A stretch of 60,740 bases of DNA from Omnitrophica bacterium GWA2_41_15 (GTDB lineage Bacteria; Omnitrophota; Gorgyraeia; Gygaellales; Profunditerraquicolaceae), in contig CAKKSP010000041.1 in the NCBI GenBank assembly GCA_919902045.1, positions 1 to 60,740 of the forward strand, in the 5' to 3' direction. Positions within the stretch are counted from its first letter, which is position 1. Each line of letters begins with the position of its first letter. The notes under the pieces are model-generated. The model did no database searches. It was given only the letters and a program-made list of their open reading frames with translations, and was not told the DNA's origin. Below, piece by piece: positions 303 to 38,442 of this stretch. The translations under genes were made by a program, and so were the position numbers.

Positions 303-1513
303 TGCCGCGATACCGCTATAGCGCAAAAAGCTCAAGCCAAGAAACAGTGCAAGGCTTAATTGACGCTGAAACTACCCAAGACGCAATCTTGCAACTTACG
401 CGCACAGGTTATTTTCCTTTAACTGTGGATGCGGCAGATTCTTCGCATTTAAATAATCGTCAAAGTATGCTTAAAACAAAAATAAGCAGGCGGGAACTGG
501 CGTTATTTACCCGTCAGCTTTCAAGCCTTACTGAATCCGGTATCAATATTATCAACGGGCTTATTATGGTTGCTAAGCAGATGCCGAATAAAGGAATGCA
601 GGCGCTGCTTGGCGAAATTATTGATAAGATCAAAGACGGTAGTTCCTTGGCAGAGAGCCTAAGTTTTTATCCTCAAGCTTTTCCGCGGCTTTATACGGCA
701 ATGATCCATTCCGGTGAATCAGGAGGAAAAATTGAACCTGTGCTCAGGGAGTTGTCGGATTATCTTGAAAAAGAGGAAGAGTTCAAGAATGCTGTCTGGG
801 CAGCGCTAACTTATCCGTTATTTGTGCTTATTGCCGGAATAGCAAGTGTTACGGTATTGATCGGTTTTGTAGTGCCGAGACTGGCCAGTATGTTTACGGA
901 TATGGGGGAAAGTTTGCCATTTCCTACCCGGGTAGTTATTTCATTTTCGCAAGGGATAGGAAAATTTGGTATAATTGTTGCGGCATTATTTGTAGTAGTA
1001 ATAATTTTATGGCAGAGGCTTCGCAGAACAAGCCGTGGAAGAGCTGTTATCGATACCCTGAAAATAAAAATTTTTCTGTCAGGGGAAGTTGTGCTAAAAA
1101 CTGAAATCAGCCGCCTAATGCGCACATTGTCGTTGTTACTTTCAAGCGGAATGCCGATTACTCCCAGCCTTGAAATTGCCTCTTTAGTTACAGATAACGC
1201 TGCCATAAGTTTACATATGCAAAAAGTAAGAGAGCAGATTTCAAAAGGCGCAAATTTATCCGGTTCTTTAAAAGAAACGAAATTTTTCCCGGATCTGGTA
1301 ATCAGTATTATTGCAGTAGGCGAAGAGACGGGCGCTCTTGATAAAGCGTTGCTTCGCGTGGCGTTAAATTATGAGCGGGATGTGGATGTTTTGCTAAAAA
1401 CTGTGGTGCGTTTACTTGAGCCTTCGATAATCCTGATAATGGGGTTGGTGGTGAGTTTTATCGTTTTTTCGATGCTGCTTCCGATTTTTCAAATTAATAT
1501 GCTGGTCAAATAA
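302..1513 (+). CDS. PilC/GspF inner-membrane platform protein
   Basis: FTRQLSSL, GESGG, ALTYP, GEETGALD and LLEP motifs; ATG at 302 overlaps the upstream TGA (TGATG). Confidence 0.92.
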   Translation: MPRYRYSAKSSSQETVQGLIDAETTQDAILQLTRTGYFPLTVDAADSSHLNNRQSMLKTKISRRELALFTRQLSSLTESGINIINGLIMVAKQMPNKGMQALLGEIIDKIKDGSSLAESLSFYPQAFPRLYTAMIHSGESGGKIEPVLRELSDYLEKEEEFKNAVWAALTYPLFVLIAGIASVTVLIGFVVPRLASMFTDMGESLPFPTRVVISFSQGIGKFGIIVAALFVVVIILWQRLRRTSRGRAVIDTLKIKIFLSGEVVLKTEISRLMRTLSLLLSSGMPITPSLEIASLVTDNAAISLHMQKVREQISKGANLSGSLKETKFFPDLVISIIAVGEETGALDKALLRVALNYERDVDVLLKTVVRLLEPSIILIMGLVVSFIVFSMLLPIFQINMLVK

Positions 1514-1517
1514 ATTT

Positions 1518-2897
1518 ATGAACAATCCTTATTTTATATTACAGTTCGCGCAGGATTCTTTAAAAGTGGTGCGAGTAAATAATAACGGCGATTTACAGGT
1601 AGAATCGCGCAGCTTGAATAAAGAGACTCTGAAGGAACAGCTGGCCGATTGTTTTAAAAAACTTAAATTTCATAATCATCCATGCGTAGTTGTGCTTGCG
1701 CGCAGTCAGGCAACATGCCGTTATCTTAAAATCCCCGGCACAAAAATTCAGGAAATAGAGCGCATGCTTACTATGCAGGCAGCGGTATTGTTGCCTTACC
1801 CACAGGATAAGCTGGTCTGTGGGTATCAAATTATCCAAACTGATAAAAGTAATTTCACGCATGCGGATTTAGTGATTGTGCATAAGGAACTGATTTTAAA
1901 AATTCTTGATCCGGTTTTAGAATTTAAACCGCGTAAGGTTTCAGTATTATTAAGCTCCTATGGTTTAGGTAATTTTGCGCGTTTTATAAAGCAAGAAAGC
2001 CAGAATCCTGTCATGCTTTCTGAATTTAACGATAATCAGGCTGAAGTAGCAATTGTGCAGAAAAATAAAATTCTTTTTGGCCGCTCTTTTCGGCTTGACC
2101 GCACGGCGCCTAGCTGGGAAAAGATTTTTTGCGAAGAGTTATTAAAAACAAAAGAAGCTTATCTTAAGGAAACTCAAGGCCTGCCTTTAGAAAAGCTCGT
2201 TCTTTTTTATCCGCAGGGGGCAGTTTTAGATAAAGAAAAATTTGCAAGCCTTTCGGGAATTTCCGTAGAAACTTTTGATTATACCGTCTCTTTAAAGTTG
2301 CCGGATGAATTTAAAAAAGATCCCGCATTTATTTTTAATGGATGGGCAGCGCTATTTGGTTTTAGCTTGGGCCTTCCTGAAAAATCTCTTAATTTGCTGC
2401 CTTTAGAGCTTAAAGAAAAACAAAAAAAACTAACCTCACTAAAAGATGCGGTTTTAATATTATCTTTTCTGTTCTTATCCTTTGTTTTGTGGGCGGTGAT
2501 TTTAAATCGCGGCGTTCAGGCTAAGGGAGATTATCTTAAGAAGATCCAGGCGCGTATTGCAGAAACCGCAAAAGAAGCCATGCCGCTTGAGGAGATGGAA
2601 AAGAGGTTTGAGAATCTTAATCGGTATACTGATAAAAAAAGTGTCAGCCTTGAAATATTAGGCGCATTGGGGGATTTAATTCCGCAGGAGGTTTTTCTTT
2701 CTAATTTTATTTATGCCCAGGAGGAGATAAGTTTACGCGGCCAAGCTAAAATAATCAGTCAGGTTTTGGAGTTTGTAAAAGCGCTTGAAAAATCTTCCGT
2801 GTTTAAGGGGTATGAGATAAAAATAAAATTTGCCACACAAAGAGGCGCAGCTAAAAATGAGGCAATTGATTTTGAGATTTCCTGCCTCAAATCATAA
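1518..2897 (+). CDS. PilM/PilN (GspL)-like alignment-complex protein
   Basis: Long cytoplasmic domain, LNLLP motif, one TM, coiled coil, then PilN-like ISLRGQA domain; operon context. Confidence 0.7.
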   Translation: MNNPYFILQFAQDSLKVVRVNNNGDLQVESRSLNKETLKEQLADCFKKLKFHNHPCVVVLARSQATCRYLKIPGTKIQEIERMLTMQAAVLLPYPQDKLVCGYQIIQTDKSNFTHADLVIVHKELILKILDPVLEFKPRKVSVLLSSYGLGNFARFIKQESQNPVMLSEFNDNQAEVAIVQKNKILFGRSFRLDRTAPSWEKIFCEELLKTKEAYLKETQGLPLEKLVLFYPQGAVLDKEKFASLSGISVETFDYTVSLKLPDEFKKDPAFIFNGWAALFGFSLGLPEKSLNLLPLELKEKQKKLTSLKDAVLILSFLFLSFVLWAVILNRGVQAKGDYLKKIQARIAETAKEAMPLEEMEKRFENLNRYTDKKSVSLEILGALGDLIPQEVFLSNFIYAQEEISLRGQAKIISQVLEFVKALEKSSVFKGYEIKIKFATQRGAAKNEAIDFEISCLKS

Positions 2898-6681: not shown

Positions 6682-7326
6682 ATGAAGATATTTATAGATA
6701 GCGCTAATATAAAAGAGATCAAAGAAGCGGTTAGCCTCGGGGTAGTAGACGGTGTAACTACTAATCCTACTCTTGTAGCCAAAGAATCGAGGCCGGCTAA
6801 ACAACTATTAGAAGAGATTTGCGCGCTCCTGCCAGGGCCGGTAAGCGCAGAAGTTATCAGTCTTGAGTCTAGTGGTATGGTAGCTGAAGCCAGAGAGCTT
6901 TCGCGTATTGCTAAGAATATTGTGGTCAAGGTTCCTTTGATCAAAGAAGGTTTAAAGGCTGCCGCGATATTAGCTAAAGAGAATATAAAAACAAATGTAA
7001 CTTTATGTTTTTCCGCAAACCAGGCTTTGCTTGCTGCTAAGGCAGGGGCAGATTATGTTTCTCCGTTTATCGGCAGGCTTGACGATATCAGTCAGGAAGG
7101 TATGGCATTAATTCGCGACATCCGTCAGATTTTTTTAAATTACAAATTTAAAACCCAGATCATCGTTGCTTCTATACGTAATCCCGTGCATGTCCTGGAA
7201 GCTGCTAAAATCGGAGCTGATATTGCCACTATTCCTTTTTCAGTTATCGAACAGTTAATCAAGCATCCGCTTACTGACATCGGAGTGCAGAGGTTTATAG
7301 AGGATTATAAAAAGATACCAAAGTAA
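6682..7326 (+). CDS. tal: Transaldolase (short fsa/TalC type)
   Basis: [30 protein letters not shown]. Confidence 0.93.
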
Positions 7327-7328
7327 AT

Positions 7329-9560
7329 ATGAAAGAGCTTCTTTTAACGCAGATTAACGCAAATCAAACGCAGATAAACGCAGATTTTCAAAGTAAATAT
7401 CTGCGACCATCTGCGTGCAATCTGCGGGAATCTGCGTTAAAATTTTTAATTTTTGTATTTGTTTTATATTCCTTTCCTTGCAACTGCGCAGCACAGGAGA
7501 AAATGGAAGCTCCGGTAACCGTAAACGGAGATACGGTTGAGTATGACGCAAGCGGCAAAGACGTCGTTGCGATAGGGAATGTCAGTGTCCAATATAAAGG
7601 CTCAAAGCTTACCTGTGACAAATTAACCGTTAATACTACTACTAAAGATAGCCAGGCAGAGGGGCATGTAAGGATAGAGGATGCTAAGGGTGTGATGGAA
7701 GGAGAGCGTGGGAAATATAATTTTAACGCTAAATCCGGATCAGTTGAAAATGCTGAATTTCGTTCATCTCCTTACTTTGGCAAAGCCAAAAACGTACAAA
7801 AAATAAGCGATGCTGAATTTATCGCAAATAGAGGTTATTTTACCAGTTGCGATTACCAGAAGCCTCATTATCGCATTAAGGCAAAAACTATTGATTTTTT
7901 CCAGGAAGATAAAGTTATAACAAAGAACGCTGTTTTTTATGTTCAGGACTTGCCGCTTGCTTATTTAAAAAAATATTCCCATAGTTTAAAAGAGCCGATG
8001 ATGCATGTGCAGTTTATGCCAGGAAAGAGCAAAGATTGGGGCGCATTTCTATTAAGTGCCTGGCGTTATCAAGTTACCGATCATGTGCAAGGCAGGATTT
8101 ATGCTGATTACCGTGAAAAACTAGGGTCAGCCGAAGGTTTTGGCGCAAATTATGATACGGATAATTTTGGCCGCGGTGATTTCAAATTTTATTATACCCA
8201 AGAGCGCCCGAAGAATTTTAATGAAGGAGATCCTGCGGAGTTTGAGCGTTACTTGGTGCGTTCGCGCCATAAGTGGGATATTGACGAGCGTACTAATTTA
8301 GTAAGTGAATATTATAAGATTACCGATTCAAAACGCGTTATTTACGGAGGCGAATACAGTATTCTAAAAGATTATTTTTATCGCGAATACGAAAAAGATA
8401 CCCAACCGTCTAGCTATGCTTTATATCATCACGCTTTTGATTATAGCGGGATAGATGTGATGGTACAAAAGCGAGTTAATAGGTGGTATTCCTCTTATAC
8501 CGAGAAATTGCCTGAAATAAAATACAATCTTTCTTCTGTACAAGTTGGAGAAACCCCGTTTTATTTTGAGCATAATTCTTCTCTTGCGAATTTAAATCAA
8601 AAAAATGCAGTGCATTCTTCTCCTGAAGGAGTAAATTTGACCCGATTTGATACCACGAATAAAATATCACTTCCTACTAAGGTGTCATTTCTGCAGTTTA
8701 GGCCTTTTGCCGGGACCCAAGAAACTTTTTATGATAAAGGTGCAGACGGAGAATCGATTGCGCCTCGGACAATGTTTTTAGCCGGAGCAGATGTGAGTAC
8801 GAAGTTTTACCGGGTATTTAATCTCAAGTCGGAATTTTTAAAGATGCAGTTTAATGGTTTACGCCATGTTATTACGCCTACAATCGGTTATACTTATCAG
8901 CATGATCCGACTGTTTCCTCAAACCATATCCGGCAAATTGATGGTATTGATTCTTTAAGCCGCTCAAATAGTGCCTCTTTGGGGCTTTCTAACAAATTAC
9001 AAACCAAGCGTGATAATAAGAGTGTTGATTTTGCGGATTTTAATATTACTAATGCCTATACTTTTAAGACAGAAGGTAATAACGGCGGCAATTTAGGAAA
9101 TTTCCTTTTTGACCTGACAGTTTTGCCATATTCATGGATGCGTTTTGATACCGATGCTACCTATGATCATCGCAACGATTATTTTACCAATGCCAATTAT
9201 GATGTTAACTTTAACTTAGCTTCTAACAAGACTATTGGATTAGGTCAGCGTTATCAGAGAAAAGGCGGTAATGAAATTACCAATAGTTTTGACTGGCGTT
9301 TTACTCCGAAATGGCGTTTGGCGCTTTATCAACGCAGAAATATCGGGCATGACCCTTCGGTAAAAAAAGGTTTACGCGAGCAGGAGTATACGATCTCCCG
9401 CGACTTACATTGCTGGCAGATGGATTTTAGTTATAATGTTAAGCGGGGAGAGGGAGAAACAATTTGGTTAATCTTTCGTTTAAAAGCGTTTCCGGAAATG
9501 GAATTTGTGCTTGATCAATCATACCATGGCCCAAAAGCAGGGTCGCAATCGAATTCGTAA
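7329..9560 (+). CDS. lptD: LPS-assembly protein LptD-like (OstA N-domain plus beta-barrel), with an in-frame palindromic insert in the signal peptide
   Basis: GNVSV...LTCDKL jellyroll, FTSCD..PHY motif, RDLHCW near the C-terminus, aromatic-rich beta strands. Confidence 0.8.
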   Translation: MKELLLTQINANQTQINADFQSKYLRPSACNLRESALKFLIFVFVLYSFPCNCAAQEKMEAPVTVNGDTVEYDASGKDVVAIGNVSVQYKGSKLTCDKLTVNTTTKDSQAEGHVRIEDAKGVMEGERGKYNFNAKSGSVENAEFRSSPYFGKAKNVQKISDAEFIANRGYFTSCDYQKPHYRIKAKTIDFFQEDKVITKNAVFYVQDLPLAYLKKYSHSLKEPMMHVQFMPGKSKDWGAFLLSAWRYQVTDHVQGRIYADYREKLGSAEGFGANYDTDNFGRGDFKFYYTQERPKNFNEGDPAEFERYLVRSRHKWDIDERTNLVSEYYKITDSKRVIYGGEYSILKDYFYREYEKDTQPSSYALYHHAFDYSGIDVMVQKRVNRWYSSYTEKLPEIKYNLSSVQVGETPFYFEHNSSLANLNQKNAVHSSPEGVNLTRFDTTNKISLPTKVSFLQFRPFAGTQETFYDKGADGESIAPRTMFLAGADVSTKFYRVFNLKSEFLKMQFNGLRHVITPTIGYTYQHDPTVSSNHIRQIDGIDSLSRSNSASLGLSNKLQTKRDNKSVDFADFNITNAYTFKTEGNNGGNLGNFLFDLTVLPYSWMRFDTDATYDHRNDYFTNANYDVNFNLASNKTIGLGQRYQRKGGNEITNSFDWRFTPKWRLALYQRRNIGHDPSVKKGLREQEYTISRDLHCWQMDFSYNVKRGEGETIWLIFRLKAFPEMEFVLDQSYHGPKAGSQSNS
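7342..7442. repeat. Periodic palindrome: 4x AACGCA(G/A)AT then 4x ATCTGCG, 14-bp perfect terminal inverted repeat
   Basis: Left units at 7346, 7356, 7367, 7377; right units at 7399, 7409, 7420, 7430; ends TTTTAACGCAGATT / AATCTGCGTTAAAA. Confidence 0.9.
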
Positions 9561-37723: not shown

Positions 37724-37752
37724 TTGACATGCTGCTTTCTTCATGATAGCAT
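37724..37752 (+). promoter_or_regulatory. sigma70 promoter of the RAYT gene (probably leaderless)
   Basis: TTGACA-17 bp-TAGCAT with TG extension; ATG 6 nt later; no SD. Confidence 0.6.
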
Positions 37753-37758
37753 TGTTTC

Positions 37759-38442
37759 ATGCCACGTATAGCCAGATTAGTTGTTCCAGGATATCCCCAC
37801 CATATTACTCAGCGAGGTAACTATCGTCAGAATATATTTAGTGATGATACCGATAGAAGGCGTTACCTCAATCTTGTAGCTGATTATAGCCAGAAATTCC
37901 GCCTCAAGCTGTTGGCCTATTGCCTCATGGATAACCACGTTCATTTTATTGTTATGCCGGATAGCGAAGAATCTATTGCAGATACATTTCATATTGTGCA
38001 TACCGTATATTCGCAGTACTTCAATAAGAAAAATAGCGTTACAGGCCATCTTTTGCAAGGTAGGTACTATTCTTGTGTGTTGGATGAGCGGCATCTCTTG
38101 GCAGCGGCCAGATACGTAGAGCGCAATCCTGTAAGGGTCAAGACGGTTAAAGATCCCACAGGTTATATATGGTCAAGTGCGAGAGGCCACGCTGCTGTTT
38201 CAAATCACGATATAATAAACACCGATTCTTTGTTTGACTATATCGAAATCAAACAAAACAAATGGAAAGATTTCATTAATCAAAGCGATGATCCGGATGA
38301 AGTATCGGTTATTCGTAAATGCACAGCAAGCGGTAGGCCATTAGGAAATAATATATTTGTACAAAAACTCGAGAAGATATCCGGTCAAATATTACATGCG
38401 TTGCCGGTTGGCAGGCCAAAGAAGCTAAGTAGTAAAAAATAG
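37759..38442 (+). CDS. REP-associated tyrosine transposase (RAYT; IS200/IS605 Y1 HUH superfamily)
   Basis: MPRIAR...HHITQRGN, YCLMDNHVH (HUH), GHLLQGRY, RYVERNPVR, Y.WSS. Confidence 0.93.
   Translation: MPRIARLVVPGYPHHITQRGNYRQNIFSDDTDRRRYLNLVADYSQKFRLKLLAYCLMDNHVHFIVMPDSEESIADTFHIVHTVYSQYFNKKNSVTGHLLQGRYYSCVLDERHLLAAARYVERNPVRVKTVKDPTGYIWSSARGHAAVSNHDIINTDSLFDYIEIKQNKWKDFINQSDDPDEVSVIRKCTASGRPLGNNIFVQKLEKISGQILHALPVGRPKKLSSKK

Follow-up and report, generated by a model that had tools for sequence, protein, structure and literature searches.

The window analyzed here is a 60,740-nucleotide stretch of the genome of Omnitrophica bacterium GWA2_41_15, and it contains an lptD-like gene with a 93-bp palindrome in its leader. 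Taken as a whole, the best explanation is that this palindrome, at 7346-7438, is very probably a gene-less miniature of a larger cassette, inserted in frame. The full-length cassette carries a small nuclease gene of the GxxExxY family between two arms of phased heptamers. Comparison of lptD loci showed that the 31-codon stretch is, at the level of sequence, an insertion, absent from about 104 orthologues. The in-frame insertion of a cassette miniature into the leader of an essential gene is new here. It would be a natural example, outside Rickettsia, of selfish DNA in an essential gene, within the discarded part of the protein. The cassette family itself (a small nuclease gene between phased-heptamer arms) is very widespread, being found in many bacterial phyla and some archaea, and is seemingly unpublished. 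No description of heptamer arms or miniatures was found in the literature searched, which did not extend to subscription journals.

The palindrome in the lptD leader

The host open reading frame (ORF), at 7329..9560 on the forward strand, is intact and encodes 743 aa. It matches Pfam PF04453 (LptD, E 1.2e-10), and its N-terminal domain matches PF06835, an LptC-related (OstA/LptC-like) family, at E 2.4e-6. The LptD match is unique in the window's genome (G000; 1.145 Mb, 51 contigs, 82% complete), and LptD matches were present in 40 of 41 related genomes. The translation begins MKELLL[TQINANQTQINADFQSKYLRPSACNLRESA]LKFLIFVFVLYSFPCNCAAQEK. The signal-peptide coding part (7329..7493, forward strand) can be read as MKELL, the 31-codon insert and then LKFLIFVFVLYSFPCNCAA, with leader cleavage inferred before Q56.

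Four CGCAGAT-type heptamers start at 7348, 7358 (the variant CGCAAAT), 7369, and 7379, a spacing of 10, 11, and 10. With an AA prefix, these units start at 7346/7356/7367/7377. Four ATCTGCG heptamers mirror them at 7399, 7409, 7420, and 7430, again spaced 10, 11, and 10, and TTAA is found at 7344-7347 and at 7437 (7437-7440). An earlier sequence-only reading of the window had described these mirrored heptamers and the two TTAA sites, and the description was confirmed. As a whole, the inverted repeat consists of arms at 7342-7388 and 7396-7442, each 47 nt long and 79% complementary, with a gap of 7 nt. The core of the element, AACGCAGAT...ATCTGCGTT, occupies 7346..7438, and its length of 93 bp is divisible by 3. 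Arm A (7346..7385, forward strand) reads AA + CGCAGAT-taa-CGCAAAT-caaa-CGCAGAT-aaa-CGCAGAT. It is followed by a 13-nt loop, TTTCAAAGTAAAT (7386..7398, forward strand), and by Arm B (7399..7438, forward strand), which reads ATCTGCG-acc-ATCTGCG-tgca-ATCTGCG-gga-ATCTGCG + TT. At no more than one mismatch, AACGCAGAT has 24 matches in the window, six of them in the element, against 13.3 +/- 2.9 in shuffled sequence, and none of 100 shuffles reached 24. The predicted RNA fold of the palindrome has an energy of -48 kcal/mol (z -9.1; none of 200 shuffles was as good) and the DNA fold one of -31.5 kcal/mol (z -7.3). Since the 3-4 nt spacers that separate the heptamers are non-complementary, the stem breaks up into four short helices and internal loops. 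The element had no Rfam match at the gathering score, only sub-threshold matches to microRNA hairpins. As a separate observation, the 12-nt string CAAAGTAAATAT at 7319..7330 (forward strand), which lies at the junction of the upstream tal stop codon and the lptD start, has an exact copy in the hairpin loop at 7389-7400. The two copies are 70 nt apart, and a match of at least 12 nt arose in 1 of 2000 shuffles in a post hoc comparison with the upstream 100 nt.

The junctions are real and no artefact of assembly, because both were matched with 0 differences in two independent samples from two studies, X7 and X8, neither of which is flagged as the source of the window. Contigs from X8 cover 6900-7409 and 7396-7900, and those from X7 cover 6900-7375, 7358-7425, and 7397-7900. 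In X7, about 110 contigs stack on 7342-7443, where the depth is about 300, compared with about 9 for the flanking sequence. The matches of these contigs end at 7342/7347-7348, 7385, 7396, 7438, and 7441-7442, which are the boundaries of units and arms.

The element corresponds to lptD codons 6-36 and contains no stop codons in this frame. Excision of 7344-7436 or of 7346-7438 is equivalent, and in each case exactly 31 codons are lost. The sequence-only reading had held that this removal restores a canonical signal peptide, and the resulting N-terminus was indeed found to be orthologue-like. It starts MKELLLKFLIFVFVLYSFPCNCAA, then QEK, and resembles MKSKILKIFLILLFF.. of a related genome (G003). 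Thirty LptD loci were read in genomes, comprising the window's own, two that are cut at a contig end, and 27 that are readable. The 27 orthologue leaders have a methionine, a few residues, a hydrophobic core and (Y/F)AQ, followed by ..P(I/V)IVNGDTVEY, and none of them has the 31-aa stretch. It was also absent from all 77 metagenome LptD orthologues with readable N-termini (80 loci, best identity 61%), and no CGCAGAT-type array was found near the 5' end at any of the 80 metagenome lptD loci. The earlier view of a selfish-looking palindrome, in frame in the n-region of the LptD signal peptide, agrees with these results, since the palindrome is lacking in orthologues and recurs in this genome and its relatives.

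The insert lengthens the n-region of the signal peptide by 31 polar residues. These include three K/R and two D/E, and their Kyte-Doolittle values are -0.4 to -1.3. The hydrophobic core follows directly after the insert and peaks at residues 37-47 (Kyte-Doolittle 2.5). The mature LptD is probably unchanged, and the insertion tolerated in an essential gene, because the extended leader would be cut off on export.

Copies of the element and the GxxExxY cassette

The genome was searched for further arrays, and the array pattern gave 9+7 matches in G000 against 0 for a reversed control. Three copies of the palindrome were found. These are the window element (C41:7342-7442, 100%), a copy at C11:22434-22530 (87% identical), and a copy at C3:4651-4742 (78% identical). 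A scan for phased heptamers returned 67 arrays in G000, and inverted four-unit pairs were seen by eye only at the three copies. Both of the further copies are intergenic: the proA stop and the nadD start enclose the first, and the second is 19 nt upstream of an atpC-like gene.

Relatives and the wider phylum were searched with up to 2 mismatches allowed. Six of the 41 relatives have the array, as do 38 of the 401 phylum genomes in the sample, G000 included. The reversed control gave one match in each of 4 genomes among the 401 searched. In some genomes the array occurs in bursts, with 62 matches in G052, 46 in G397, 34 in G414, and 26 in G042. The four-unit arm with 10/11/10 spacing was found in two Candidatus Omnitrophota records, as a single arm in L130 and as a full 4+4 hairpin in L160. 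A scan for the exact array with one genome per species returned at least 123 stretches. Among the matches listed, record titles name Cyanobacteria (including Nodularia, Dolichospermum, and Sphaerospermopsis isolates), Planctomycetota, Verrucomicrobiota, Acidobacteriota, Nitrospirota, Chloroflexota, and Proteobacteria, as well as the archaea Methanoperedens, Methanosarcinales, and Methanobacteriota. Outside the phylum the usual form has three units with a period of 10 and complementary spacers, as in ..AAC-CGCAGAT-GAA-CGCAGAT-AAA-CGCAGAT ... ATCTGCG-TTT-ATCTGCG-TTC-ATCTGCG-GTT...

The genes that adjoin the arrays can indicate what accompanies them. When 1206 flanking ORFs from 80 loci were clustered, the sole recurrent neighbour tied to the arrays was a protein of about 130 aa. 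It belongs to the GxxExxY family (TIGR04256 / PF13366 PDDEXK_3, E 1e-35 to 1e-43). The larger clusters among the flanking ORFs belong to common kinds of protein (glycosyltransferase-, TPR-, and response-regulator-like), and their distance from the arrays is irregular. A hidden Markov model built from three GxxExxY proteins detected 12 frames beside arrays, which represent 11 distinct genes since two loci overlap.

Full-length copies of the cassette carry a member of this family between their arms. In two of these, L227 (G397:C58) and L092 (G259:C21), the 5' arm reads AACGCAGAT-nnn-CGCAGAT-tgca-CGCAGAT-ggt-CGCAGAT and is followed by the PF13366 ORF. The 3' arm reads ATCTGCG-nnn-(A/G)TCTGCG-ttng-ATTTGCG-nnn-ATCTGCGTT. 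The enclosed gene encodes a GxxExxY/PDDEXK_3 protein of about 135 aa. Its ATG falls in unit three of the 5' arm, and the stop codon of the L227 gene falls within the 3' arm's first spacer. When its minus strand is read, the window element shows both of these arms in the same order, with identical TGCA and GGT spacers. Arm B is the reverse complement of the cassette 5' arm (TGCA, GGT spacers), and Arm A is the reverse complement of the 3' arm and matches it down to the CGCAAAT variant, which is the second unit from the outside. The loop of the window element is the site that a gene of about 400 bp occupies in full-length copies. Because the arms are those of the cassette and a 13-nt loop stands in the place of the gene, the window element appears to be a gene-less miniature. 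A comparable pair exists in G397, where a miniature lies 1.1 kb from a full copy and its 5' arm spacers are identical. The TGCA and GGT spacers are common to all five G397 loci listed; copies in G052 vary widely in their spacers.

The association of the family with heptamer arms is not limited to CGCAGAT. Among 28 PF13366 loci chosen by the search tool within the phylum, 16 have a heptamer that occurs exactly at least twice upstream and whose reverse complement occurs at least twice downstream. The heptamer varies by locus and includes CACAGAG, CACGAAG, CACGGAT, CACTGAA, GATTACA, CGCGAAA, and others. PF13366 was found in 21 of the 38 genomes that have arrays and in 45 of the 363 that lack them (odds ratio 8.7; by Fisher's test, p 6e-9), a p-value that overstates the association because related genomes are not independent. 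At one further locus, L226 (G414:C64), a long tandem array of the 23-nt unit ATCTGCGtcATCGGCGtttactt lies beside the GxxExxY gene at about 1860-2070, and the heptamer arm there is expanded to about nine paired units.

An alignment of 33 GxxExxY sequences shows no variation at E35, Y38, D74, E84, K86, Q98, N115, F116, and R125. Copies that carry the window's arms have the PD-(D/E)XK catalytic pattern intact, and the gene looks active. An AlphaFold (AF2) model has a mean pLDDT (predicted local distance difference test) of 90. Among solved structures, the closest in fold are Cas4 SSO0001 (E 4e-4, template-modelling score (TM) 0.55) and lambda exonuclease, and Hjc resolvases score lower. As modelled, the protein is a nuclease of the PD-(D/E)XK fold, and this fold is silent on mechanism. 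A sequence search of the PDB with the L227 protein returned 0 matches at E <= 1. PDDEXK_3 is listed with its function unknown, and multiple transfers are noted (PMC3424549).

Proposed mobility of the miniatures and competing explanations

The phased heptamers lie on one face of the DNA, and their sequence is conserved while the spacers drift. Most likely, the cassette's own nuclease, the candidate for moving the miniatures, would read them as its cis sites. Under such a mechanism, the presence of a full-length copy would let miniatures spread, and its loss would be followed by their decay. The three copies in G000 are probably stranded, because no GxxExxY gene was seen in that genome. The element most likely arrived in lptD as a miniature moved in trans, because a gene-bearing copy of 0.5 kb would break the gene. 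The insertion argues that the 93-bp hairpin form was itself inserted and possibly moves on its own. Tentatively, heptamer-array hairpins could represent a new class of minimal mobile element in its non-autonomous form; the only protein of the class would be a PD-(D/E)XK nuclease of about 135 aa that recognises phased heptamers. This wider proposal is doubtful, and much less probable than the identity of the window element as a miniature. If it depends on the nuclease, the mechanism of cassette mobility would be new. Read on the sense strand, one arm of the element yields polar residues and the other often hydrophobic ones, so signal peptides could tolerate insertions at 5' ends of genes, and such insertions could even be recruited as signal peptides.

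Several observations weigh against the interpretation of the palindrome as an inserted cassette miniature. There is no PF13366 gene in 17 of the 38 array genomes. G000 has no PF13366 match at E <= 0.01, in a genome that is 82% complete, and G052, which is 99% complete and has its 62 array matches, also has none. From G052 it follows that copies are kept without any need for the nuclease, whose part in their movement is hypothetical. An empty site was not found among LptD relatives, the closest of which are only 59-61% identical, and no contig in X7 or X8 skips the element, although contigs drop rare variants. Without an empty site, no target-site duplication can be defined. The sequence-only reading had suggested a possible TTAA duplication, and this part was not borne out as a consistent feature, since only 5 of 59 hairpin-type copies have TTAA within 6 nt at each end. 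The conserved termini AACGCAGAT...ATCTGCGTT include the AA..TT, and in 26 of the 59 the palindrome continues into the flanks by 3 nt or more. The conservation of heptamers relative to spacers is partly circular, because the units were found by their likeness to CGCAGAT. Lastly, the insert gives the predicted signal peptide an n-region of 37 residues.

The strongest of the alternatives, though an unlikely one, is that another enzyme moves the hairpins, such as a RAYT/IS200-like Y1 transposase, a kind of enzyme whose substrate is hairpin DNA, and that the GxxExxY gene is mere cargo. In the repetitive extragenic palindromic (REP) systems, the REP-associated tyrosine transposase (RAYT) is a Y1 HUH transposase and the REP is a single palindrome of 20-40 nt. 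The heptamer elements resemble REP/REPIN-RAYT systems in that palindromes are dispersed between genes, a single-gene parent has the same repeats, and gene-less copies outnumber the gene. There are seven matches to PF01797 in G000, one of which lies in the window at 37798-38127, and the family was present in all 5 genomes tested. G052 has many copies, no PF13366, and four Y1 genes. However, PF01797 does not discriminate, as it occurs in 34 of 38 array genomes and in 286 of 363 without arrays (320 of 401 overall). G027 (90% complete) has clear copies and PF13366 with no PF01797 match, and none of the seven Y1 genes in G000 adjoins a CGCAGAT array. The systems also differ in that the gene here is of the PD-(D/E)XK fold (PF13366) and the arms consist of 3-4 phased heptamers. 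The GxxExxY start and stop codons fall within the arms (the stop as seen in L227), which a cargo role would not explain. The Y1_Tnp region of the window, at 37750-38439 (forward strand), is itself flanked by a 21-nt inverted repeat.

It is very improbable that the palindrome is untranslated, with the true lptD start downstream and the element serving as a 5' leader or as a terminator for tal. The tal gene (6682..7326, forward strand) encodes a protein of the transaldolase / fructose-6-phosphate aldolase family (PF00923, E 1.3e-60), and its stop codon is 2 nt ahead of the lptD ATG. An untranslated role would agree with the other two G000 copies and most copies in relatives, which are intergenic and 7-25 nt from start codons. 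In addition, TTTTTAATTTTTG comes after the hairpin. Against this, there is no in-frame ATG, GTG or TTG between codon 1 and M59 (7329 to 7503). M59 is beyond the hydrophobic core and a start there would leave LptD without a signal peptide, so export of LptD implies that the leader is translated through the element. Joining MKELL to LKFLIF.. rebuilds an orthologue-like leader, and of the six frames through the element only two are open, including the one that lptD uses. The terminator scan does not call the element, with the qualification that its loop limit is 8 and the loop here is 13 nt.

Slightly more remote still is the possibility that the arms work mainly as RNA, in the manner of rRNA intervening sequences. 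A long stem around the small ORF would then be processed by RNase III, and the lptD miniature would be a site of processing or attenuation. The strong RNA fold of the element could be expected in such a case, and the small ORF between inverted repeats recalls the intervening sequence of Coxiella 23S rRNA, as described in PMC4990558. However, the spacers are non-complementary in this clade, which breaks the stem into its short helices, and it is sequence rather than pairing that is conserved. Cutting within the lptD mRNA would also cost the cell.

Hardly credible at all is an operator array for a host regulator controlling lptD (e.g., of the OmpR/PhoB type, with direct repeats of about 10.5 bp), since the 10-11 bp period that would place the sites on one DNA face and the conserved heptamers with drifting spacers (a partly circular point) are outweighed by the lack of the element at about 104 orthologous lptD loci, by unrelated neighbours (nadD, atpC, coaBC-like, aspC-like, parA-like), by the lack of any recurrent neighbour but GxxExxY among the 1206 flanking ORFs, and by a copy number that varies from 0 to about 30 per genome.

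Known mobile repeats and other heptamer palindromes

The gene-less miniature of the GxxExxY cassette can be compared with other short repeats. Rickettsia palindromic elements (RPEs), as presented in the review PMC10969869, are short palindromes found in frame in unrelated coding genes, where they are tolerated as extra peptide. The window element is likewise in frame and stop-free (93 bp = 31 codons), and it is absent from 27 + 77 orthologues. In size and layout, RPEs differ in being about 150 bp long and in having neither phased heptamer arrays nor a gene-bearing parent that is known. About half of RPEs are in ORFs, whereas coding insertions are rare here. Among 50 hairpin copies, the only ones are the window copy and an unverified copy at L039. 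The latter (G027:C103, about 1501-1558, minus strand) is a 3+3-unit copy in frame, which encodes the 20 aa TPIHADSQDNKSESISDHLR. Its host is a 430-aa ORF with HEAT-like and TolB-like parts, and it is possibly a second coding insertion. No orthologue that spans the insertion site was found, so it is unverified.

MITEs (miniature transposable elements with inverted repeats) and mobile insertion cassettes are similar in being non-autonomous and short, with inverted ends and a longer gene-bearing relative, and in their patchy occurrence and bursts. In contrast to MITEs, the parent here has no recognised transposase gene, only the PD-(D/E)XK-fold gene, and the ends are internally reiterated. Integron attC sites were also considered, because the ends, TTTTAAC..GTTAAAA, resemble their core sites. 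They were rejected, as the gene is between the arms and not outside a complete palindrome.

The lptD leader carries palindromes in other genomes as well. Of 96 lptD loci of this clade, 6, including the window's, had palindromes in the leader region, whereas an internal control stretch had one at 0 of the 96. The five other loci (L255, L269, L274, L234, and L237) have different leader palindromes, with heptamer arrays in the four that were inspected, all but L255. L255 was counted as palindrome-bearing on its 5' 170 nt. The remaining palindromes are in or just ahead of the signal-peptide coding part, at L269:1369-1487, L234/L233:1358-1496, L237:1396-1490, and L274:1329-1440. One such array has AAATTCC x4 opposite a GGAATTT-type arm, and at L269 translation of the 3' arm yields the hydrophobic core. 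The minimum free energy of the 170 nt at lptD 5' ends has a median of -36 kcal/mol, against -41 kcal/mol for the internal stretch, so there is no general excess of structure in this GC-confounded comparison.

At L120, L164, and L181, which are from other phyla, the CGCAGAT arrays are adjoined by repeats of further heptamers, namely ACTCCGC tandem repeats and CACAGAG/CTCTGTG hairpins. This suggests a larger superfamily of heptamer repeats.

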